Under the pieces are notes generated by a model. That model did not search any database, was not told the DNA's origin, and worked only from the letters and a program-made list of their open reading frames with translations. The translations under genes were made by a program, and so were the position numbers. Positions 9,075-64,000 of a stretch of 64,000 nucleotides of DNA are shown here, piece after piece. The stretch's first letter is position 1, and each line of letters opens with the position of its first letter. This DNA is from Cycas panzhihuaensis (lineage: Eukaryota; Plantae; Cycadophyta), in NCBI GenBank assembly GCA_023213395.1, contig CM041465.1:221905741-221969740 (forward strand). The letters run 5' to 3'.

Positions 9075-12000
9075 TAATCTCAATTATATGCAAATTTTAA
9101 TGAAGAGATCTTCAGTAAAAGCTTTGGTGAACATGTCCATAATTTATTCCTCACTTGGACAAAATTTGACCTATAACTTCCCTAATCTAATTTGCTCATG
9201 GATTTAATGACACTGGATCTTGATATGCTTTATACATATGTGAAACTCTAGATTCTTAGAATGTAAAATAGCACTTTGATTATTAATATGTATGATAAGT
9301 ATGCTAGATGAAATTCTAAGCATCTCTAATAGTCTTTCTAACCATACAGCTTCCCTTGCACTAATACTTAGTCCCTAGTACTCAACCTCTGTAGATGACA
9401 ATACAATGATAGTCTACTTTTTGGTTTGCCATGATACAAAAGTATTGTTAATGCCAAAAATATATCCTAAAATCAATTTTTGATCTTCTAAATCTCCATC
9501 CTAATTTGCATCTATTTATCCATGCAAGTATACCTCTCCACCATGAAGGTATTCAAGGCTAAAATTAAATGATCCCTTCACATACTTCAAAATCCTTTTG
9601 ACAGTAACCCAATAAGGCTCTTGGGGATTCTATATGAAAAGGGAAACAAATCTAACAATATAGGTAACATTAGGCCTAGTATGAGTTAAATAAATCAAAC
9701 TCCTTGCTATGTGCTGATATAAAGTCCCATCTACAGTTGGATTATCCATATCCTTCAAAAGCTTTGTGCCCTTAACACATGGTATCTTTGCTAGTTTACA
9801 ATCCTTCATGCTAAATCTCTCAAGCAAGTTTACAACATGTCTCACTTGTGACAATATGATGTGATCCTCCATTTTCCTAACTTTAATTCCCAAGAAGTAA
9901 TGAAGTTGACTGAAATCTGTCATATCAAAAGTGTGTCCTAAATAGGACTTTGTCATTGTAATAGTTTTGTTATAGTTGCCTATAAGAATAAGGTCATCAA
10001 CATACAACACAACAATAACTATTATCAAACCACTCTTTTAAATATAAAGATTCAATTCTAATCCAGTCAACACAAACCCATCTTCCTTCAATTTAGCATC
10101 TATCTTCTTATACCAAGCACGTGGTGCTTATTTCAGGCCATAGAGAGATTTTTTCAATTGACATACTAAATGCTTATTATCTTTCTTAATAAATCCTAGA
10201 GGTTGCAACAAGTAAATCTCCTCCTTTAGATCTCTATTAAGAAATGTGGACTTAACGTCCATTTGGTATAACTCCCAACTATACATAGTTGCAAGAGTAA
10301 GGATTAATTAGACCATTAACATCTTAGAGACTAGTGTAAATGTCTCCTCATAATTGATTCCTTCTTTCTATTTGACACCTTGTGCAACAAGTCGAGCCTT
10401 ATGCCTGTCAACCTCTCCATTAGAGTAATATTTTATCTTGTAGACATACTTATAATTGACTATGTTCTTGAAGGGAGGTAAGGAATCAAATCCCATATAT
10501 CATTCTTCATAATTGATATGTACTCCTCCTCCATTAGAGCTCTCCATTGCTAGTCTTATTTTGCCTCCTTATATAAAATGGGATATCACTAGAGTCATTA
10601 TTGTCCACCACAAAAGTCTAACTAGCATATTGTCTCCTTATTCATCAATTATCTGTAAGCTCTTCTATTATCATGCTGGAGTCTTTAATAGTCCTCCTCA
10701 CCCATAAAAGAACATAGGGTATTATTCGTGCCTCATTATATAATGGCTCTTCATTAATACTTCTTCTTATTCCTACTTCTAATCTTATTAGCATAATGTT
10801 AAACTCTTAAACCTTAGCACATCTATTGAAAAATCAACTAAGAAAAGGAAGAAGTAGAGGATAAAACTTGTCTTTAGATGTTTTTTTAGCATGGTATATT
10901 AATGACTCATCAAACTTAACATCCTAATAAATCATAAATTTTTTCTTCTATGGATCTCATAGTCTATAAGCTTTACACTCTTCTAAGTACCTTACAAAAA
11001 TACACTTCAAATTCTTATGATCCAACTTCTTGCGATGTTTGTCAAGGATGGGTGCATATGCAGTGTACCTAAATACTTTTAAAAAAATAATGGAAGGTTT
11101 ATGATTGGTCTAATATTCTTCATGGGTAATGCCACAAATAACCTTCATTAGGACCCTATTCAAAATATAAATAACTATTGACATAACTTCTACCAAAAAT
11201 ATTAGCAATACGTTTTTCAAATGTATTATACACCTTGCCATCTCTATCATGATATGGTTCTTCCTTTCTGTAATACCATTTTGTTGTGGGGTATATAGGA
11301 CAGTCAACTTCCATTTAATACCATGATCAAGGTAGAACTATTTAAGGTATTATTATCATACTCCTTTCTATTATCACTTCTTAAAATCTTTATTTTTTTA
11401 TTACACTCATTTTTGACACAATTTTTCCTTTCATAAAAATTTTTAAATACATCAGACATGCTCTTGAAAAAGAATAGCCAATCTTTCCTACTGAAATCAT
11501 CTACAAACACAAGAATATATCGAGCACCAAAAATAGAAGGATTGGATAATAAATTCATTAAGTCAGTATAGACAAGTTCTAACTTTTCCTTCACTCTTCA
11601 AGCATAATTTCTAGCAAATAGATAGTGATGATGCTTTCCATATGCACATCCTTCACAAATGCCTTCTAAACAAGCAACATGTGGTAACCCTACCACCATA
11701 TGTAATCTTTTCATCAAGTTGATTCTTTTATAGTGACTCAATCATTCATACCATAACTTACTCTTGTTATCAGTTTTGGTGACAAAATCATAAGAAAGTT
11801 TTTTATCTTTGAATTTCTCAAACACCCAAAAATTATCCTATACTCTCCTAATAGTAACAATAGAGAAGTTCTTCTTCCTTAACTATATATATGTTATTAT
11901 AAAGTTCAATTTTCATACCTTGTTTACAAATTTCCTAGGGAGACAGAAGATTTAACTTCATGGTCAATACATAGTACATGTTATTGAATATACCCCCTTC

Positions 12001-43732: not shown

Positions 43733-46700
43733 ATGGTGCCTAAATTGGGTTATGATCTCCTTAACACAATGCTTAAAATAAAAGGATATATCTCCATTGA
43801 CATCATGTCAAATTCCTAAAGTAGGTTTCACCAACCTTCAATATGGTTTCAAGCTATTATGGCAAGTACAATCCTGCACCTCTTCATGGCCTTCTACATA
43901 TCAAGATTCTAACTAGGATATAAAATCTTGTTAGATAAAATTCATCTTACCTTTAGGAATCTAAAGCTTATTCCTCTCTCTCTTTCCTCTTCCATATATA
44001 TATATATATATATATTTTATAGTTGGTCACCAAGAGGTATGACTCTTTTTTTATTATGTCCTTTCATACATATATTAATTAATCATGCATTAATGGTAAT
44101 TTACTTATTCACTTTAATTAAGTTTTTATTTCTCCCAATAAGGGAAATTAGGTATGTGACACAAACATATTATCTTTTCCCAATTCCATAAGGTCATCTA
44201 TAAGAAAACAATTTAATTCCTTTATACCATTAATGATTTTTTCATTTACATGTGCCTAACATTCTACTTCTTCATTGAAACTATGGCTTGTTTAATTTAT
44301 TTACATGCATTTTTAATCAAGAGCTAAAAACGAGGGATAATAATCTCTACCTAGATTTCATCACCAAGGGAGAGGGGTGACCTTACACCTAAGGTGGGTT
44401 GTATCTTTATTGTATTTTAAGCAAGCTAGTCATAGGTGGTTATCTCAACTGCATGCAGTTGGAAGAATTAAGTACCATTAGTCCCATTGAGAGTAACCTA
44501 TCTTACCTCTTTTCAACTCTAGGAGCTTAAGGCCCATCAAAATCTAATACATGTATCTTCTAGACCTTCCACACTTACAAGTGGGTTATTATTAGAGGAA
44601 TAAGTACTCACTGACTTATCCATGAGTGGATTGTGAAGGAATGATAGATCTAAGGAATAAATTACTCACATGTACACAATGGAAATGGAGAATGAAGAAG
44701 AGATTAAAATAAGATATGAGAGCAAATCTTAAAGGTGAGAATGAATAATGACTCCCTCCTTGAGATTTTGCCTTTTATTATTGAGGGTAAGCATTAGAGT
44801 TAGGATTTTGCTCCTAATGACATGAACTCAAAATTATATCTAAATGCACATAAAGTGTATTTCACTACAAGACTAATACTAACATTATACCATAAGGTCA
44901 CTTAATTAATATACACAAATGACCTTAATACATTAACCTCTTTCAATCCCCCCTAAATGATAGAAGGTTATTTTAAAAAAATCTATTATATAAGATCTTT
45001 ATTTTAGCCTCATTATTATATTGAAATTCTAAATGATACTTTTGTGGGAAAACCCTTATGGAAAATAAAAACTCATGGACTTTTTAAGATCTATAGCCCT
45101 TTTTATAAATTAAAATAGCTAAGGTGGCTCTTGATGTAGCCTGATAGCTAAGCAACTTGATTTGTTGAATCTCCATATATCATTTGGTCATCCCCTATGC
45201 CCTTGCAAGTTTTCATAGATTTTGATTTTCCAAAACTAGTACAACCCTTATTCTCCCATGCCCACATGGGGTTTTCACAAATAGGATAGAGCAAAGACTT
45301 ACTCTTATTCTTCTATACCCATAAGGGATTTTCATGAAGAGAATAGAGTATGATGATCTTATTACCATCTTCTTTGATCAGTCGAAGATATAGGCTCTGA
45401 GGCTAAGCTACCTTCAGAACTATTCAAGGTATTAGCCACTTGATCTGCTCTGAGGTAGTATTCTGATTAAATTATGCCATCATAAACTAGTTCTCTAATC
45501 TTGTGGACTTTTCTACTTATGTGTTTGATATGATCATGAAATATAAGATTTTTTGCCATATGGATTGCTGATTGATTATCTACACAAAAGTTGGTAGGAT
45601 TTATTTGGGTGATATTCAATGTTTCTAATAATTTTCTAAACCATATCAACTCCTTACTAGTCTCAGAAGCAACAGTGTATTCAGCTTTGACAATCAAATT
45701 AGTAACTATCTTTTGTCATCTAGATCTCCATGATATTGGTGCTATTCTAAGAAATGTTGCATACCCAAACATAGATCTTCACGTATCTTTATCTCCTACA
45801 AAGTCTAAGTCTCTATATGCAGAAAGCTTAAATTCATTATTAGGTTCATATAATAGACCAAATTTGTTGGTTGTCTTTAGGTGTTTTAACACTTGAATTG
45901 TAGCTTGCTAGTGATTCTACTTAGGATTTATCATGAATCATATAAAAATACTGACAGAGTGTGTAATATATAGCCTTACATTGTTAGTGTAGATGAGGCC
46001 ACCTATAAGTTTCTCATAGAGTGTTACGTTTGCCTCCCTAGTATCACCATCAACTAAGAGTTTGGTATTAGGGTCCATAGGTATAGCCACTGATCAAGCA
46101 TTTTTTAACTAAAACTTCGTTAAAAGATCATTGACGTATTTTTCTTAGGAGAGGAAAATTTTTTCATTCTTTTGTATTACTTCAATTCCTAAGTAATATT
46201 TCATCAATATAAGGTCAAACAATTTAAACATTTTGCCAAGGTCCTTTTTCAACTAGCTTATTACATGTTTACTGCTACCCATTGCTAACATATCATCCAT
46301 AAAGATTATGAGATAAGTGACTTTATCTTTTTGCCACTGGATGCATAATGTTGTATCAATAGCTTGGTAGTCACAAACCTCATATCCAAGTTACTTCATT
46401 CTTTTAGACAAATTGGAAAACCAAACAAAAGGAGCTTATTTAAGGCCATACAAGGACTTTTTGAGTTTGTAAACCTTATGCTCTTGACCTTTGATATTGT
46501 ATCCTTTTGGTTGAGCCATGTAAATTTCTTCTTCAAGATCCCCATTTAGAAACATGATTTTAATATCAAGATGGTAAATTTTTTAGCCCTATTGAGCAGC
46601 CAAGGCCACAATAGTTCTAATTGTAGGCCACTTAGTTGTAGGTGTAAAGACTTTAGTGTAGTTAATGCCTTCCCATTGTGTGGATCCTTTAGCTACCAAT

Positions 46701-47656
46701 ATTACCTTCTATTTTTCCAGGGTGCCATCTAATATGTATTTATTTTTAAACACACATTTATTTTGAACTACCTTTCTACCAAGTGGTAGATCAATGTACT
46801 CCCATGTACTATTTTTTATGAGAGATTGGTATTCTTCATTCATTACATTTCTCCAAACTATATATTTCATAGCTTTTTGGTATAAGAGGGGCTCTTCATT
46901 AAGAGTAAGGTGTAGTTCTATTGGTTCAAGCTTAGTATATAATGATTCCTACATCCTTACTCTATGGGCACTTCGAGTGCTAGTTTTATCTACCTCATCT
47001 GGTCATATGTCCTTGTTAAGTTGGTGGGCTTTATGAGATCCTTGAGTTAGGAATGAGATCCTCATTTCCTCAACTTCTTGGTTCTTATTTTGTTCATTAA
47101 AATTATCATTTTCTGAGTAGGATATTGGCATGCCTAGGGGAGATGATCCTTCTACCACTATTTTGCCTTTATTAACTGAAGATAGAGAGGATGACTCTTT
47201 TATAATGGCTTTACCTTTGTCAACTCGGTTACCTTCAAAAGATGGTGTTGTATATATATTCATCAGTTCTGAGTCATAACTTATATCCTCTAAGGCTCTA
47301 TTATCAACTTCTAATATTTGGAGTAATTTATGTGTGTCTCCCCTCTAAATTTTAGAATCTGAACATCATACTTGATAACATCATTATAGCGGCATGAGGG
47401 TGTTTTAAAGCCTAATCTAAGCAACTAATCCTCTAGTCTCCACAAAAATCACATCTCTAGTAATGATGATTTTTCATTCTAAAGGTATAAATACCTCATA
47501 TCCTTTCTTGTCCATGGGATATCCCATAAAGATGCCTTTAAGTACCCTTAATTGGAGTTTATTTCAATTTGCATCTAGAATATGGGCATAGCATGTAGAG
47601 CCAATAATTTTAAAGTAGTGAACAATTGGGGCTTGTCTTGACCATTTTTCATTAGA
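43733..47656 (+). repeat. Segmental duplication, copy 1 (copy 2 at 56597-64000)
   Basis: Colinear high identity across the H LTR end, its TSD, the flanking DNA and the 3' half of copia D. Confidence 0.93.
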
Positions 47657-50600
47657 TGATTATCCTTTCTTTGATGGGCTAATAACATTGATGCAATAAA
47701 TAACTATCTAGATGGCTTCAACCCATAAGTAGGTAGGTATATTTTTGTATACCCATATAGCTTGAGCCATGTTCATGATTGTCATATTCATGCACTTGAC
47801 AACACGATTTTATTGTGAGGTACCTATTATTGTTGTTTGATGTTTGATGCCATTATCTTAAAGGTAGCTTTCAAACTTATGTGAGGTATATTCATCATTA
47901 TTATCAGTTCAAAGACATTTGAGTTAATAACCTGACTCTTTTTTAGTGTAGGCTTTGAATTCTTTAAATACACAAAAGGTTTCATCTTTCTTATGTAGAA
48001 ATGCTACCCATATTTTCTTAATGAAATCATAAATGAAAGAGATATAATATAACTTACACTTCAGTGAAGGAATGGGCATTGGTCTACATAAATTAGAGTG
48101 TACTAATTGTAATAGATGGCTCAATTTCCACTGACTTTTGGGAAAGCGTTGTCGATGAGATTTGGTAATGATGCAAGCTTCACATTTAAAGGGCTTGAAA
48201 GAGAACTTTGGAAGACATGGAAGAGTGTTACAAAGATCTCTAAGTCTATCAATATAAACATGGCCTATGTAAGCATGCCAAAGAGCTTATAGTGATAATG
48301 TTGGGTAGGTCAGGATGGTATTAAATGTAAATTCTTCATTAGCATAGGGGCTTTGGGCACAATAGGCTTTAGAAGATGGAGAGTTATTTAGTCAAAATAG
48401 TTTACCATTGAAATGTCCAGTCAAAACTACTTAATTAGTTGGAGGGTAAATGACATGGAAAGTTTAGTCATTTATGGTTACAATCAAATGAAATCCACTA
48501 GAGACAAGTGTGGATAAGGAGATGAGGTTTTATTTGATATTGGGTATATATAGGACATTAAGCAATGTAAAATCTCTTAAGCCTAGGAGTTTTAGGTGAA
48601 TATTACCAAGTCCTTTACCAGGTTGTTGTGATTTGTCAGCCATGTGAACAACTTCTTAAATATTTAAGTCAAATGTTTTATATAGACTATGATTGTACAT
48701 CATATGTTGAACTGCTCTTATGTCTATAATCCACTGTCTATCAATTAAAACAACGCTATTTGCAATTCTAATAGAAGTTGGCATTAGTGAAGGGAATTCA
48801 CAAGTGATATATCTACATTAAGCTCCAAAGTATTTCTCTGATTAGCCAATGGCATTTGATGTTGAAGATCCCTCAATTCTTTAAAAGTGTGCTTGTACAA
48901 AACCTACACCACTAAATGATTCTTCTCAAGTTTCTTCAATATTGTGAGATCTATGTTTTGGTTGGAACTTGGCAAACTTATAAGTGGTAGTTGTGTAGTC
49001 TTTTGTAAAGTTCCCTTTACAGTTATACCAATCACATATAATAGTTTGATTGCCAATCCTTAAAGAGGTACTAGTTTGGACTATCTATCTCATTTTTTGT
49101 TGAGGTGGCCTTAGCCTTGAGAATGTTAAGGCTATGAGTGAGAGTTTGGTTAACCTTGTGGATGATCGCCCATGTTTCTTCCTCTTCCTCTTGCTCAGTT
49201 GTTTCCTCTGCCACGAGAGGGACCTTGGTTCTTTGTATAGCAAGCTTCTTCTTCCACCTTAAAGGTTGCATCTGGAAGAGAGTTAGAGGCTACAATGTTA
49301 GTATCAAAGGTCTTGTCAAGTTCTATGAACTTCTTAGTAAGTGCTTTGAAGTTGAGTATTTTCAATATTTCACTAGATTAAAGACTACTAAACAAGTTTT
49401 TATAATAAGGGACATGTAGACATGATTAGATCAAGAATGTCCAAGTGATATATTTAGTATTAAAATCTTTATCAATTACTTATTTTATTAGTTGAAGGAG
49501 ATTTATTGTCTCATGTGCTCATCCCTAATGTACTTTTAATTTGTTCATTTTCAAAATAAGATGAACAAATTCTAAGTCTAGCTTGATATCAAAGTTCTTC
49601 TTGAGAACTTCACGGGCCTTCAAGGTTGTATCATGTTGCTCTTCATAAATCAAGTTGTGTAAGGAGTGATTAATAACCAACAAAATTCCTACATGAATCT
49701 TTTCATCATCTATCTCCCATTATAGTTTAGTTGTGATATTTATAAGAGCTATTAGAGAAGTTCCACCAAAAGTAGGTGTTGTAATTATTGCAGGTATGAT
49801 GGGTGTAGGCTACAAGTGGGCTCTCTAAAGGCCTTCATACTTTATAGCATTTTTAACTCCAGTGTATCACAAATCCTAATTTTCTTTACCTTTTAATATA
49901 TAGTTGACATTTTGCCTGAATTGAGATAACATGGTGACAATAAAGAAGTAGAAGAAATAATAGAAGTATGTGCTACTAACATGTGTGATTAATACACCTA
50001 GTGTAGTAAGGATGTAGAAATCAATGCTATGATAAGAAGGCAAGTAATGATTAAGTATTTTTTAACAATTATAAAGAATAAGTATAAGCAATGATGTAAG
50101 AATGAGACATAATATCCAGCTAACAAATAGTGGTGATGTGTTATGCCACTAACCTCTAACTTATGTCTAAATGTAGGTGAGGTTTTGATGCCTAAGACTT
50201 CAAGTATATGATTAGGGCCTTCACCCATGATGCCCACACCTATGCTTGGTGATGAAATCAAAGTCATAGTAGAGCTTAGGTACTCTCAATCCTCACCCAA
50301 TTCAATAGTGAGTAGCTATATACCTCCTCCAAAGAGTAAAATAATACGTGCATATCCTACAGCTATGATGAATATTAGACCGGGTTAATTTTAATCTTGC
50401 ATTAAGGTTTTAGTTGTCTTGATTGGTTATTAGGATAATCCTTGAAGGGAGCCTATAAGTATGGCTAACCTATAACTCCACCAGTATTCTGATTAAGACC
50501 AAACCTAGTATGAAGCTCACACCTCCCTTAGGGCTTGGGCTTCAGCCAACTATGGTCTATTTCAACCAAGGTGAGTATGCGCACAAGTCAAGAACTAGCG

Positions 50601-56596: not shown

Positions 56597-56858
56597 ATGG
56601 TGCCTAAATTGGGTTATGATCCCCTTAACACAATACTTAAAACAAATGGATAAATCTCCATCAACATCATGTCAAATGCCTAAAGTAGGTTGCACCAACC
56701 TTCAATATGGTTTCAACCTATTATGGTAAGTAAAATCCTGCACCTCCTTGTGGCTTTCTACATATCAAGATTCTAACTAGGATATAGAATCTTATTAGAT
56801 AAAATTCATCTTACCTTTAGAAATCTACAGCTTATTCCTCTCTCTCTTTCCTCTTCTG

Positions 56859-59800
56859 TATTAAGATTAGGAATATAACAAGCATATGAAACCCTAATGG
56901 TGAGCAATAAAAAGATGAAGTATATACAAAATAGACACCGTGTTGGAGAATTGGCCAAAACTTAATTATGAACAAATAAGAGTACATACTTATAGTACAA
57001 CCTCACCACTAGAGAGAGAACCCCATTGGACTACATAGAGGTGGCACACATATCAAGGTGGCCCACAACTCTAATATAAAATACAAAAGATAGAGAGAGT
57101 TTACATAGGGCTAATGGAATTAAGTATTACACCCAACATTCCCCCCTGTAATAGTCAATTATATAAATGTCGTCACATCAATAATAAGCTCAAGTCTCCA
57201 AAAGTCTGTTGGATCATAACTGCTGCTGCACAGAATAAGAAAGCTGTTGAAGTCCATATGAAGTAGAGTCCATCTATCAGAATGCATGGGTTATCAGCCG
57301 CTGCAACTGCTAGTTAGGTAGGAACTCCCTTTATATACGTGGATCAATCAACAACTGGCAAGAGTAGTTGTATAAGGTCCCACCCTCGCTCATATAGGAG
57401 TGTAAGTAGGAAAAAATATATATAGAGCACATGGGAGGCAAGAGTAGCTTCTAAAAGTGTGTCCTACCTCTTGCTCAATAGGACTACCACTTCTTCGACA
57501 TCTATTAGCCGGAAATACAATGGCACTATGGCCTCAAACATGCCACATGGGCTAAAAGATGCCTCATTGGGCTAACAACTTGCCACCATGGGCAAAAATA
57601 ACCAGCATTAGAAATTTTTACATGAGTGAAAAATAATATGTGACTTGTGTAGCACATATGACTCTCTCTCATAAATGAAGTACAATATGATCGCAATGGG
57701 TTCTTCAAGAGCTAAAAAGAAGTCCATAGTACATGTCATCCCCTCCCATTTGGGGTACATTACATCAAGAAGCCTTGAAAATATAATATGTGCTTGAAGA
57801 AGCTGAAAAAAAATGAAGACAAATAGAAACTTGTGACTTTGAATGAAAAAATCTCTATAAAAATAGCTCCTAGGTCTAAGATATCATCAAAAATGTGAAA
57901 GATAGTCTTTAACGACGCTGAAAAATGAAGGTTAGCCCCTTTTATGGCTAGCTACTGTTCATATAAATCCTCCATAAGACTAAGTGCTAATAGCAAAGGG
58001 GCTAGGGTGGATCCGAAACCAATATCTAATATAGTTAAATTTATTTTTTCAAATCGAAAAAAAATAAACTTAACCCTTTTTAATAACAAAATTCGCCAAC
58101 ATAATATACGCGAAAAAAAATATAGTGTTAACCCTAAATAGGGTTTGCAATAACGATATACCCCATTGAGAGGGGGGGCGTCGCCATTGAATATATTTAT
58201 AGGTGCAGGATGCCATTAATCGAACCGACATTGAAGAATGAAATTACAGAGTCATGCATGCGAGGTTTTCCCATGAGTGGCAATATCCATGAGCACGCAT
58301 CGACTACGATAACTCTAGATCTCTAAGAGTTTCCATCACCATCCATTCGAATGCCCTGTGTAGAACGCGTCAGGCAAAAACCACTAAGCTGCCATATACT
58401 TTGCAGAGTTTGTAATGGATGAAGCCATGTTTTATTTCCGTGTCGCCATTGTATGGTTTGTAGGTCTCCACTGTGGGAATAATTATTGAATTGCCATTGA
58501 TGAAGTGCTCGAGCATGCATACTCTAATCCAACACTTGTCTATAACTGAGGACGCTCACATTCCAGCTATTAACGAGCTTCCCATCAGTGAAACCTAAAT
58601 GAAACGGAGGTCTAAGGAATGATAGAACTAGCAATAGCCAATCTGCAAAGAATTTAGCGATGGTTGCTTCTCATCCAGAAATTTTATCCTATTCATAAAT
58701 TTGGTATTGATAATTTTAGCATCGATAAGACCATTTCAACTGCCAAGTAGCCAGTGGATATCTGCCCCAACTGTCACCTCAGAACTGAAAGGCCACGCTC
58801 CATTTATTCTGTGTGGTCGCCATCACGGTAATAAGGAGAACGCAGGTACTTCCTGAGAGACCAGGTGCATTTTTCGTTGCAATATGACGGGGATCGACAT
58901 CAAATGGCAATGTCATATCTCACGAATATTCTGTCATCCAAGGTTTATGATTTGGCCATCGAATCCCCGCTCTAGTATGTGCCCCAGGTGTCTGAGAAGA
59001 TAGGCTTCAGGATTTGGTTGAAATAAGAGGACCTGTAGCATGTTTTCTTTTTATTGCGTGAGGCATACAACACGATGGCAAAACTACCTAAGAAGTAGCT
59101 AGAGAGAGGAGTTATATGCTCCAATACCAAGCAGAAATACGATCACAAAATAGCTGCCAATAATTATCAACAAAACTATCAATCATCATTAATGCATTAC
59201 CTACACCAATGATAACTGATAATAAATAAATATAGCTCCACATGTTGTCTGGCAGGAAATAGATTGTAGTTGTAGAGAATATCCATCAGACTGCCATGAC
59301 AGCCACTCTCTTGCTGGTACATGGAAATATAGGCCAATGGTTTTCTAGTCATACTCTCTATAGTTTTGGCAAATGGTTACACACCAACAAATAGATTTGG
59401 CAGAAAACCATTTTTTTTTTTTTTGAAAAATACATAAGAACATAGGGTAGAATATAGATTTTTTGATTTTTTTTTTTTCAATACAAGAAGCTATAAAATA
59501 GTACATATCAATAGAAGTATATGTATGACCTATAAATCTGTAAATCTTCCAAAAATGGAGTCACTTCTGGCTTCCGAATAGCGAGAAGCGCTCTTTCAAC
59601 CATCATAACAGTTCACGCAACACTCTAATCGACGAAGGAAGTAGCTAAATAGTAGTTGAATCTTCACAAAGAATGCGGTGGACTTTCACTTGCATGCAAA
59701 TTTATTGTGGTACCACATGTAGAGAAGATGTCCACTTGAGCAGCATCAACAGGCTTCAAACAACTACAAAACTTCAAAATAGGCTTAAAAATAGCCTCCC

Positions 59801-60290
59801 CTCAACACCAAAATAGCCCTTCAAAACTTGATAACAGTCCCATAACAAAATATGCATAAGATGTAACTTGAAATGATCTTCAACTTGATAAAGTCACCAA
59901 ATAGGCACATCAAAAAAATTTACAAGATTTGAAAGCTCAAAAACATGGATAACACGTACTAGGATTTGCAAGAAATGCCTCCAAGGACTAAACCTTGGGC
60001 TCTGATACCATGTTAGGATTAGGAATGTAACAAGCATATCAAACCCTAATGGTGAGCAACAAAAAGATGAAGTATATACAAAATAGACACCATGTTGGAG
60101 AATTGACTAAAACTCAATTATAAACAAATAAGAGTACATACTTATAGTACAACCTCATCACTAGAGAGAGAACCCCATTGGACTACTTAGAGGTGGCACA
60201 CATATCAAGGTGGCCCACAACTCTAATATAAAATACAAAAGATAGAGAGAGTTTACATAGGGCTAATGGAATTGAGTATTACACCCAACA
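56859..60290 (-). mobile_element. Non-autonomous LTR retrotransposon J (3.4 kb, 280-bp LTRs) carrying a host gene fragment
   Basis: LTRs 56859-57138 and 60011-60290 differ by about 13 substitutions by eye. TSD TTCTG/TTCCG. Perfect PBS complement GCTCTGATACCA at 59999-60010. PPT at 57139-57146. Absent from duplication copy 1. No gag/pol recognised. Confidence 0.95.
58874..59122 (+). pseudogene. OMR1: Captured host gene fragment: plant biosynthetic threonine dehydratase/deaminase (ilvA/OMR1 homolog), N-terminal catalytic region
   Basis: SLQY...[68 protein letters not shown] matches the plant TD pattern [20 protein letters not shown]...[34 protein letters not shown]. Confidence 0.92.
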
Positions 60291-60295
60291 TTCCG

Positions 60296-60322
<27 letters not shown>
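60296..60322. repeat. (TA)n microsatellite in the duplicated H LTR (paralog at ~43994-44015)
   Basis: Dinucleotide run. Confidence 0.95.
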
Positions 60323-60330
<8 letters not shown>

Positions 60331-60949
60331 ACTATAGTTGGTCACCAAGAGGTATGACTCTTTTTTTATTGTGCCCTTTCATACATATATTAATTAATCA
60401 TGCATTAATGGTAATTTACTTATTCACTTTAATTAAGTTTTTATTTCTCCCAATAAGGGAAATTAGGTATGTGACACAAACATATTCTCTTTTTCCAATT
60501 CCATAAGGTCATCTATAAGAGAACAATTCAATTCCTTTATACCATTAATGATTTTTTCATTTACATGTGCCTAACATTCTACTTCTTTATTAAAATTGTG
60601 GCTTATTTAATTTATTTATATGCCATTTTTAATCAAGAGCTAAAAATGAGGCGTAATAATCTCTACTTAGATTTCATCACCAAGGGAGATGGGTGACCTT
60701 ACACCTAAGGTGGGTTGTATCTTTATTATATTTTAAGTAAGCTAGTCATAGGTGGTTATCTCAACTGCATGTAATTGGAAGAACTAAGTACCATTAGTCC
60801 CATTGAGAGCAACCTATCTCACCTCTTTTCAACCCTAGGAGCTTGAGGCCCATCAAAATCTAATCCATGTATCTTTTAGACCTTCCACACTTACAAGTGG
60901 GTTATTATTAGAGGAACAAGTACTCACTGACTTATCCATGAGTGGATTG

Positions 60950-63900
60950 TGAAGGAATGATAGATCTAGGGAATAAATTACTCACATGTATACAATGGCA
61001 ATGGAGAATGAAGAAGAGATTAAAACAAGATATAAGAGCAAAGCTTGGAGGTGAGAATGAATAATGACTCCCTCCTTGGGATTTTACCTTTTATTATTAA
61101 GGGTAAGTATTAGAGTTAGGATTTTCTTACCTAATGACATGAACTCAAAATTATATCTAAATACACATAAAGTACATTTCACTACAAGACTAATACTAAC
61201 ATTATACCGCAAGGTCACTTAATTAATCTACACAAATAACCTTGATACATTAACCTCTTTCAATCCCCCCTAAATGATAGAAGGTTATTTTAAAAAAATC
61301 TATTATATGAGGTCTTCATTTTAGCTTCATTATTACATTGAAATTCTAAATGACACTTTTGTGGGAAAACCCTCATGGAAAATAAAAACTCATGGACTTT
61401 TTAAGATCTATAGTCCATTTTATAAATTAAAATAGCTTAGGTGGCTCTTGATGTAGCCTAATAGCTAAGCAGCTTGATTTGTTAAATCTCCATATATCGT
61501 TTGGTCATCCCTTATGCCCTTTCAAGTTTTCATAGATTCAGATTTTCCAAAACTAGTATAACCCTTATTCTTCCATGCCCACATGGGGTTTTCACAAATA
61601 GGATAGAGCAAAGACTTACTCTTATTCTTCTGCACCCATAAGGGATTTTTATAAAGAGAATAAAGTATGATGATCTTGTTGCCATCTTCTTTGATCAGTC
61701 AAAGATATAGGCTATGAGGCTAAGCTACCTTTAGAACTATTTAAACTTCATCCTTTGTAATGGTTTGGTGAAGATATTAGCTACTTGATCTACTCTAAGG
61801 TAGTATTCTAATTAAATTATGCTATCATGAACTAGTTCTCTAATCCTGTGGACTTTTGTACTTATGTGTTTGATATGATCATGAAATATAAGATTTTTTT
61901 CCATATGGATTGTTGATTGATTATCTACACAAAAGCCGGTAGGATTTATTTCGGTGATATTCAATGTTTCCAATAATTTTCTAAACCATATCAACTCCTT
62001 GCCAATCTCAAAAGCAACAGTGTATTTAGCTTCGGTAGTTGAATTAGTAACTATCTTTTGTCATCTAGATCTCCATGATATTGGTGTTATTCTAAAAAAT
62101 GTTGCATACCCAGACATATATCTTCATGTATCTTTATCTCCTACAAAGTCTAAGTCTCTGTATGCAGAAAGCTTAAATTCATTATTAGGTTCATACAACA
62201 GACCAAATTTGTTGGTGGTTTTTAGGTATTTTAACACTTGAATTGCAGCGTGCGAGTGATTCTACTTAGGATTTATCATGAATCGTGTAAAAATACTGAT
62301 AAAGTGTGCAATATCTAGCCTTATATTGGTAGTGTAGATGAGACTACCTATAAGTTTCTTATAGAGTGTTACGTTTACCTCCCTAGTATTACCATCAACT
62401 AAGAGTTTGGTATTAGGGTCCATAGGTATAGCCACTGGTTGAGTATTTTTTAACTGAAACTTCATTAGAAGATCATTGATGTATTTTTCTTAAGAGAGAA
62501 AAAATTTTCCATTCTTTTATATTACTTCAATTCCTAAGTAATATTTCATCAATATGAGATTAAACAATTTAAATATATTATCAAGGTCCTTTTTCAACTA
62601 GCTTATTACCTGTTCATTGTTACCCATTACTAACATATCATCCACAAAAATTATGAGATAAGTGACTTTATCTTTTTGCCACTTGATGCATAGTGTTGTA
62701 TCAATATCTTGATAGTCACAAATCTCATATCCAAGTTACTTCATTCTTTTAGAGAATTTGGGAAACCAAGCAAGAGGAGCTTATTTAAGGCCATACAAGG
62801 ACTTTTTGAGTTTGCAAACCTTATGCTCTTGACCTTCGATCTTGTATCCTTTTGGTTGAGCCATATAAATTTCTTCTTCAAGATCCCCATTGAGAAACAC
62901 GGTCTTAATATCAAGCTGGTAAAATTTTTAGCCCTATTGAGCAGCCAAGGCCACAATAGTTCTAATTGTAGGCCACTTAGTTGTATGTGTAAAGACTTTA
63001 GTGTAGTTGATGCCTTCTCATTATGTAAATCCTTTAGCTACCAACCTCACCTTGTGTTTTTCCAAGGTGCCATCTAATCTGTATTTATTTTTGAACATAC
63101 ATTTATTTTGAACTACCTTTCTACCAAGTGGTAGATCAACGTGCTCCCATGTACTATTTTTTATGAGAGATTGGTATTCTTCATTTATTGCATTTCTCCA
63201 AACTATATGTTTCATAGCTTTTTGGTATGAGAGGGGCTCTTCATTAAGAGTAAGGTGCAGTTCTATCGGTTCAACCTCAATATATAATGATTCCTACATC
63301 CTTACTCTATGGGCACTTTGAGTGCCAATTTTGTCCACCTCATATGGTCATATGTTGTTGTTAAGTTAGTGGGCTTTACGAGATCCTTGAGTTAGGAACG
63401 AGATCCTTATTTCCTCAACTTTTTTGTTCTTATTTTGTTCATTAAAATGATCATTTTCTGAGGAGGATATCGACATGCCTAGGGGAGATGGTCCTTCTAC
63501 CACTATTTTACCTTTATTAACCAAAGATAGAGAGGATGATTCTTCTATAATGGCTTTACCTTTATCAACTCTATTATCTTTAAAGGATAGTGTTGTATGT
63601 GTATTCATCAAGTCTGAGTCACAACTTATATCTTTTGAGGCTCTATTATCAACTTCTAATATTTGGAGTAATTTCTGTGTGTCTCCCCTCCAAATTTTAG
63701 AATTTGAACATCATACTTAATAACATCATTATAACGGCATGAGGGTGTTTTGGAGTCTAGTCTAAGCAACTAATCTTCTCTCTCTGCAAAAATGACATCT
63801 CTGGTAATGATGATTTTTTGTTGTGAAGGTATAAATACCTTATATCCTTTCTTGTCCATAGGATATCCCATAAAGATGCCTTTAAGTGCCCTTAATTAGA

Positions 63901-64000
63901 GTTTATTTCAATTTGCATCCAGAATATGGGCATAGCATGTAGAGCCAATAATTTTAAAGTAGTGAACAATTGGGATTTATCTTGACCATTTTTCATTACG
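60950..64000 (-). mobile_element. Duplicate of copia D (3' LTR 60950-61262, RH, RT, INT C-terminus), continuing beyond the window
   Basis: Same flank junction (GATTG|TGAAGG) as 44634. RT ORF pieces 61812..61994, 62262..62465 and 63021..63215. Confidence 0.92.

Follow-up and report, generated by a model that had tools for sequence, protein, structure and literature searches.

The window analyzed here is a stretch of 64,000 nucleotides (nt) of the cycad Cycas panzhihuaensis (assembly GCA_023213395.1, contig CM041465.1, forward-strand positions 221,905,741 to 221,969,740), and all coordinates are counted from its first letter. At 56859-60290, on the minus strand, it holds a 3.4-kb non-coding long terminal repeat (LTR) retroelement, which we call J. 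With paired LTRs, a primer-binding site (PBS), a polypurine tract (PPT) and a target-site duplication (TSD), and with no gag/pol capacity, J is a non-autonomous LTR retrotransposon. Its interior carries pieces of two host genes: a decayed threonine dehydratase (TD; OMR1/ilvA) fragment, noticed in a preliminary description of this DNA, and, next to it, pieces of an MFSD12-like transporter in which the end of exon 11 is followed directly by the start of exon 4. The transporter join is stronger evidence for capture from RNA than the TD piece, and it is the unusual feature of the element.

The transporter cargo and its exon 11 to exon 4 join

The preliminary description had singled out 59220-59420 for a BLAST search, and this stretch is partly covered by a second host gene: on the minus strand, 59124-59295 matches an MFSD12-like transporter (PF13347), with an E-value of 1.6e-9 to the Ginkgo MFS_2 protein Gb_40275. 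This protein was the only match among 5 candidates; the family comprises 986 proteins named MFSD12-like. Two pieces can be told apart, A from exon 7 and B from the 3' part of exon 11, and in the window B comes before A, an order swapped with respect to the transcript. In a 2121-nt contig from run X24, A is found at 980-1033 (4 other letters) and B at 1334-1445 (10 other letters), with 300 letters, or 100 codons, leading from A to B without introns; behind B, ALMM continues into VTAISMESIL, and the loose end of this transporter transcript reads GIEKQYRWIA, as in Ginkgo. The RNA status of run X24, which bears the species label of the best DNA holder, is a guess, and none of the listed holders is on record as RNA, which says nothing about expression; the two contigs of X24, this one and the TD contig described below, behave as spliced mRNAs.

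The window departs from the transcript exactly after ALMM. The 13 nt that follow agree at 12 of 13 positions with the IDRFG exon start of a conifer-like transcript (L001), where the next best site reaches 9 of 13. Five sister contigs (three from run X5 and two from run X2) follow piece B to 59171 and then go on for a median of 127 and 171 letters, and the consensus of their loose ends, GSFLVAVS, is exon 4 after a 21-nt gap, with 24 of 30 letters as in L001 when aligned by eye. In the J copy, the remainder of exon 4 up to piece A has been lost at a shared AGTTTTG. One sister contig holds, in addition to the exon 11-4 join, 59296-59400 of J, and because it has this sequence in common with J we take it to be part of a sister element. 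The transporter cargo recognised in the window comes from exons 11, 4 and 7 only, all inside exons 4-11, and there is no A-tail behind piece A, which abuts the TD fragment; the sisters are known from short contigs.

The position of the splice sites in other plants was read from a metagenome profile scan. Of its 99 confirmed stretches the best 80 were kept, and these gave 66 distinct loci, which include many redundant genomic contigs of plants. The IDRFG motif is found in 52 loci, 5 spliced and 47 of intron type, and all 22 of its distinct upstream contexts end in AG; the NALMM motif is found in 32 loci, 7 spliced and 25 of intron type, and all 13 of its distinct contexts start with GT. Both sites are visible in 23 loci, among them L052, whose closest named proteins are from liverwort. 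A cDNA/genome pair has 11 coding-region introns, with GEL/IDR and ALMM/VT both in phase 0; the exon numbers 4 and 11 count the 5' untranslated region exon of this pair, in which exons 4-11 amount to 834 nt. As a separate observation, five plant MFSD12-like transcript contigs (L003, L004, L006, L009 and L011) keep single introns, including those before exon 4 and after exon 11. The probability that one random backward jump hits both the donor and the acceptor is 4.5e-5, or 1.4e-4 when a 2-nt slide is allowed. Judged by its letters, the exon 11-4 join is the kind of non-colinear, donor- and acceptor-exact junction that defines pseudogenes derived from circular RNA (circRNA).

The threonine dehydratase fragment and its flank

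When 58874-59128 on the plus strand is translated with its stops written as X, the product aligns with tomato threonine deaminase (3iau; E 8.8e-15), with IlvA models (up to E 5e-19) and, at E<=1e-3, with 81 of 91 candidate proteins, nearly all of which bear plant TD names; the protein match covers 58907/58910-59125. A 1542-nt contig from X24 aligns with 58885-59121, showing 22 other letters and 3 gap letters, and extends into SAGNHAQGV, a conserved motif. The start of the TD reads MSYL, as it does in Taxus. These matches bear out, for 58885-59121, the earlier view of clear plant TD in one frame, and together with the LTR anatomy of J they also uphold the view that an LTR element took up a piece of host TD. 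As had been stated, the fragment is antisense to J, whose PBS and PPT are on the minus strand. A second, deeper TD-like contig of X24 (depth ~79) matches only 58910-58970 and differs upstream; it is likely a TD paralog.

Four stops interrupt the frame: TAG at 58973, TAA at 59024, TAG at 59036 and TAG at 59096. The X24 contig reads C at each of the four positions and G at 59025, and these letters indicate that the original codons were CAG, CGA, CAG and CAG and that the stops are C-to-T changes. Homologs have Q, R, Q and Q at the four sites (51/71, 69/69, 69/69 and 52/58 motif matches, respectively), in agreement with the earlier remark that the stops fall at Q/R codons. It had also been proposed that a codon was lost around the lysine motif that binds pyridoxal phosphate (PLP). 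A net loss of 3 nt is confirmed, but the aligner splits it into a 2-nt gap after 59042 and a 1-nt gap after 59053, so that the lost codon may not be a single clean one; under either gap placement the PLP-binding Lys of SFKLRG is missing.

The divergence from the transcripts is 9.3% (22/237) for TD and 8.4% (14/166) for the transporter, and both values exceed the difference between the two LTRs of J. Taking into consideration that (i) the two divergences are similar and (ii) 13 of the 20 listed differences between cargo and transcript are of the C-to-T or G-to-A type, captures of similar age followed by methylation-driven decay would fit. By itself the TD fragment is an ordinary dead capture, given the ~400,000 captured fragments per gymnosperm genome reported in the accessible text of PMC13477047; only its antisense orientation is puzzling.

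The preliminary description further took plant TD genes to have an intron at EDLQP/V and argued from the unbroken frame for capture from mRNA. Of this argument the continuity stands, since 58885-59121 runs uninterrupted across EDLQP/V; what backs the intron is two or three broken gene models among the 81 TD proteins. Sixty-six motif matches read EDLQP-VFSFK and 14 proteins lie outside the motif, while two gene models break right after EDLQP, one from Camellia (P0002, in which a normal copy is present as well) and one from Gossypium (P0080). In a further model, P0082, a shifted frame fits, in our reading, an acceptor before V. One 874-nt DNA contig has an alignment that ends at 59039, with 55 letters left over. 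The accessible part of the OMR1 paper gives exon numbers without junction positions (PMC3542050). From these sequences an intron at EDLQP/V, and hence an origin of the TD piece from spliced RNA, appears likely. A plant-specific degenerate TD pattern had no match in either viral contigs or prokaryote genomes.

The flank at 58140-58870 had been called CpG-rich, and it is: its observed/expected CpG ratio is 0.71 versus 0.17 for the window, a value reached by 7 of 633 segments of the same size (overlapping ones included). Contigs of X24 match the flank at ~58487-58582 and 58679-58870, and 58199-58884 probably holds more host-gene pieces, perhaps the 5' region of TD. Two candidate identities within it were set aside, namely APC armadillo repeats (PDB, E 0.5-0.84), treated as chance, and the TD C-terminal motif VFPERPGA, which matches 58846-58869 at 7 of 8 positions (E 0.48) and was not accepted. 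The sequence GTCGCCATTG is present twice, near 58180 and 58442.

Element J, its insertion site and its relatives

The features of J are collected in Table 1. A six-frame search of its interior found no gag/pol Pfam domains, and there is no coding remnant that would point to a Copia or a Gypsy helper; control open reading frames elsewhere in the window match RVT_2. The LTR pair shows 13 differences over 280 nt, a Kimura two-parameter (K2P) distance of 0.048, and the two TSD copies differ at a CpG. Assuming a conifer rate of 2.2e-9 per site per year, the insertion would be ~11 million years old, and we take the PBS to be of the initiator tRNA-Met type. The host site is a Copia copy (56597-56853 and 60296-63998, with an RVT_2 remnant at 63021-63293) beside a (TA)n run, and the empty site is provided by an uninterrupted sister of this copy at 43733-47654, which is 8% diverged and has the target word once.

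Table 1. Anatomy of element J and of the cargo in its interior, in window coordinates (summed contig depths from three DNA runs)
Feature	Position	Strand	Remarks
Left TSD TTCTG	56854..56858		right copy TTCCG; empty sister site TTCCA
3' LTR of J, 280 nt	56859..57138	-	TG...TA, terminal CA decayed
PPT AGGGGGGAA	57139..57147	-	adjoins 3' LTR
3' internal arm, high-copy, non-coding	57148..57910	-	depth ~5,000-150,000; 0 Pfam matches in six frames
Medium-copy block, A-tracts and AACCCTA motif	58007..58198		depth 150-600
Low-copy CpG-rich cargo	58199..58884		depth ~7-40; parts matched by contigs of the RNA-guess run
Decayed TD (OMR1/ilvA) fragment	58885..59121	+	antisense to J
MFSD12-like piece A (exon 7; Ginkgo P0085 aa 262-281)	59124..59177	-	sense to J; tblastn 75%
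First 13 nt of MFSD12-like exon 4 (IDRFG, aa 140)	59171..59183	-	overlaps piece A via AGTTTTG microhomology
Non-colinear exon 11 to exon 4 junction (ALMM/ID)	59183..59184	-	exact at both splice sites
MFSD12-like piece B (aa ~381-417; 3' part of exon 11)	59184..59295	-	sense to J; tblastn 80%
Low- then medium-copy internal sequence	59296..59638	-	0 Pfam matches; 59296-59400 also in a junction-bearing sister contig
Leader, high-copy, non-coding	59639..59998	-	depth ~7,000-100,000; 0 Pfam matches
PBS TGGTATCAGAGC	59999..60010	-	directly behind 5' LTR
5' LTR of J, TG...CA	60011..60290	-	280 nt
Right TSD TTCCG	60291..60295		5 bp

Summed contig depth over the three DNA runs, which is not copy number, is 10^4-10^5 for the arms of J, 10^2-10^3 for two inner blocks and ~7-52 for the cargo at 58199-59350, and from this contrast we infer that the J family is very common and that few of its members hold this cargo. 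Runs X7-X20, with small shares, did not enter the analysis. The two medium-copy blocks (58007-58198 and 59351-59638, depth 10^2-10^3) separate the low-copy cargo from the very high-copy arms and suggest a subfamily in which the cargo slot varies. The left boundary of the TD piece is bridged, in organisms A, B and C, by contigs that are 9-14% diverged from the window, which indicates that the capture is older than the insertion of J and was then copied on. Absence of the fragment from other J copies had been named in the preliminary description as a point that would tell against it; here the outcome is divided, as most family members lack the cargo, given element ends thousands of times deeper than it, and a few diverged sisters carry it. 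At the join between TD and piece A, crossing contigs have at most ~19 letters on one side, and this join is hence not counted as bridged.

Some further arrangements were seen beside these. One contig of run X1 jumps from 57351 to 59411 (30 letters on one side), and one of X2 joins TD at 59034 to 59179, skipping 144 nt (20 letters on one side), as another deletion variant of the cargo. A nested Pack-MULE or terminal inverted repeat element was considered for the interior and rejected, because the comparison of 57880-58260 with the reverse complement of 59300-59700 scores 46, which is reached by 51 of 200 block shuffles. Elsewhere in the window, a decayed Copia-type frame at 2005-2568 matches RVT_2 (E 3.5e-44), and the frames at 9630-10037, 11304-11597 and 47924-48286 are also decayed Copia-type, being similar to reverse transcriptase (RT) or integrase by eye only.

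Origin of the cargo

We propose that RT supplied by an autonomous relative switched to a circular RNA of the transporter gene, packaged along with the element RNA, and that it read through the back-splice junction of this circle; we consider this the probable origin of the transporter cargo. The host would make an 834-nt circle of exons 4-11, and during minus-strand synthesis the enzyme would jump from the element RNA onto this circle in exon 7, copy back through exon 4 and past the junction to exon 11, covering ~540 nt and thereby less than a full round, and then jump back. Later copying rounds would have brought trimming at microhomologies, with the 21-nt loss in exon 4 that is common to the sisters and then, in the J copy, the loss from exon 4 to exon 7 at AGTTTTG; microsimilarity is seen at this internal deletion, while the outer joins lie at 59295, 59124 and 58885. 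The circle route explains the whole transporter cargo, whereas a linear mRNA would need an extra jump onto both splice sites. The TD piece would come from spliced RNA at one remove. Because it is antisense, a plain minus-strand switch onto its own mRNA would not produce it, and since decayed intronless TD copies exist (see below), our first guess, to which we give about an even chance, is an RNA reading backwards through a processed TD copy; a plus-strand jump onto TD mRNA seems clearly less probable, and DNA repair somewhat less probable again. Methylation-driven C-to-T decay would have produced the TD stops. Neither cargo piece can encode a protein, and the cargo of J is likely neutral.

Several points weigh against this route. 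Only 13 nt of exon 4 are present in the window, 7 of which also fit piece A, and the two contigs that span B, exon 4 and A (59126-59200; X1 and X2) have 17 letters on the B side, short of the 31-letter rule. The join has a 2-nt microhomology (exons 3 and 11 of L001 both have TG as their last letters), and a tandem exon duplication or splicing in the element RNA would give the same join. No gymnosperm genomic locus is among the 66, so that loci of angiosperms and bryophyte-like plants serve to bracket the host splice sites, and among the contigs examined no intron-bearing host gene was seen, either for the transporter or for TD. The exon 4-11 circle itself was not found, the single RNA-guess run showing only the linear transcript, in contigs that drop rare forms. 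The antisense TD piece finds no explanation in a simple minus-strand switch onto mRNA, and ~690 nt of the cargo (58199-58884) are unassigned, with no Pfam match in six frames and no PDB match better than E 0.5.

The exact join could have been made by splicing of the element RNA, if two unspliced transporter pieces had been captured in swapped order and the exon 11 donor was then joined to the exon 4 acceptor. As the transporter is sense to J, its splice sites could be used, and the join coincides exactly with both; capture in several steps is also known (Tan et al., PMC5131818, in its accessible text). However, the same gene would have to be captured twice, in reverse order and each time with an intron end, and the five sister contigs pass from ALMM straight into exon 4 with no intron remnant, which makes this course quite unlikely. 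We rate just as low a linear donor, where a host paralog with tandem exons 4-11, exon repetition or trans-splicing supplied a linear mRNA that already contained the join. Capture of linear mRNA is the established route (Tan et al., PMC5131818), and a database model from Orobanche (P0091) resembles fused tandem copies of the gene, but the sole host transcript contig seen is colinear, with ALMM leading into exon 12, and all recognised cargo falls within exons 4-11. That a template jump or DNA rearrangement fell by chance on the 2-nt microhomology, with a coincidental match to the splice sites, is very improbable: although the other cargo joins are microhomology deletions at arbitrary positions, and TG ends both exons concerned in L001, the probability is ~1e-4 for one jump and stays <1e-3 over the half-dozen joins examined.

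For the TD piece, the alternative is capture from the genomic DNA of a TD gene that had no intron at EDLQP/V in this lineage, which would be silent on RNA. No intron-bearing host TD contig was identified, capture at the DNA level easily gives an antisense orientation, and some DNA contigs cross EDLQP/V without a break and extend further into TD (loose ends at 59053, 59120 and 59121). These contigs are decayed, however, with the SAGNHAQG motif altered in the loose ends and a stop in EDLQ in one of them, and they resemble processed copies rather than a gene; moreover, angiosperm gene models break exactly after EDLQP. We judge such a genomic origin unlikely. The same continuous, codon-damaged contigs indicate that processed TD copies, or longer sister cargo, exist elsewhere. 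In runs X1, X2 and X5, decayed intronless TD copies matching 58960-59121 extend past the J fragment at both ends.

Copying from a circle, the origin that we favor for the transporter pieces, places J beside the known circRNA-derived pseudogenes, which come from mouse circRFWD2, circSATB1 and circDIAP3 and human circPRKDC and circCAMSAP1 (Dong et al. 2016, PMC4897178). The accessible text of that study reports LTR enrichment in the flanks, leaves the mechanism open and cautions that structured linear RNAs could yield similar joins. The J cargo shares with this class the reversed exon-exon junction and the presence of several copies of different lengths. It differs in being in a plant, inside one LTR element with PBS, PPT, LTRs and TSD, and in adjoining a piece of a second gene in the opposite orientation; furthermore, the mouse circles are known from RNA data (PMC4897178), whereas that of J is deduced from a DNA junction. 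No precedent for a plant circRNA-derived pseudogene was found in a literature search that covered neither subscription papers nor supplements, the usual place of circRNA lists, where the exon 4-11 circle may be catalogued; it returned the mammalian study, reviews and unrelated papers. Likewise, in the accessible part of a review that covers plant circRNAs, the section on circRNA-derived pseudogenes has only mammalian cases (PMC6965350).

That template switching takes place between the RNA of an LTR element and co-packaged cellular RNA, that it can involve several donors and that copying rounds follow, has been established (Tan et al. 2016, PMC5131818). Like the elements described there and maize Bs1 (as cited in that paper), J has partial gene copies, from at least two donors, in place of the element coding region, microsimilarity at the internal exon 4 to exon 7 deletion and further copying as a non-autonomous element; unlike them, one donor of J looks circular and one piece is antisense, and the word 'circular' is absent from the accessible text of that paper. 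With elements of the TRIM (terminal-repeat retrotransposon in miniature) and LARD (large retrotransposon derivative) type, such as wheat Veju (PMC13317346, as far as its accessible text goes), J has in common short LTRs, a PBS and a PPT without gag/pol, and foreign internal sequence, which in Veju came via abnormal template switching; it is unlike that type in its 3.4 kb and in its very high-copy arms around a low-copy multi-gene middle. Exon fragments captured by transposable elements (TEs) number ~400,000 per gymnosperm genome, and on average 13.68% of host TEs hold at least two (Platycladus genome paper, PMC13477047). The TD piece is one such capture. That survey is BLAST-based; exon order, orientation and the exactness of joins at splice sites are not treated in its accessible text ('antisense' has 0 occurrences).

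Because the join lies inside a complete LTR element with sisters and an empty site, the phenomenon is tied to template switching and becomes testable. To the wider reading, that J-type elements in this gymnosperm sample any co-packaged RNA, circles and antisense included, and that a plant circRNA was here written into the genome by an LTR retrotransposon that is itself still intact around it, we give slightly better than an even chance. If it is true, circRNA-derived pseudogenes would arise when templates are switched inside a virus-like particle, a process that does not require a poly(A) tail, and J-type cargo would be a fossil record, open to dating, of back-splicing that took place millions of years ago. 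Genomes alone would suffice for a screen: the ~400,000 captured fragments per gymnosperm genome (PMC13477047) could be searched for donor-acceptor joins in reversed order, and the result would reveal the frequency and the age of circRNA formation in plants.

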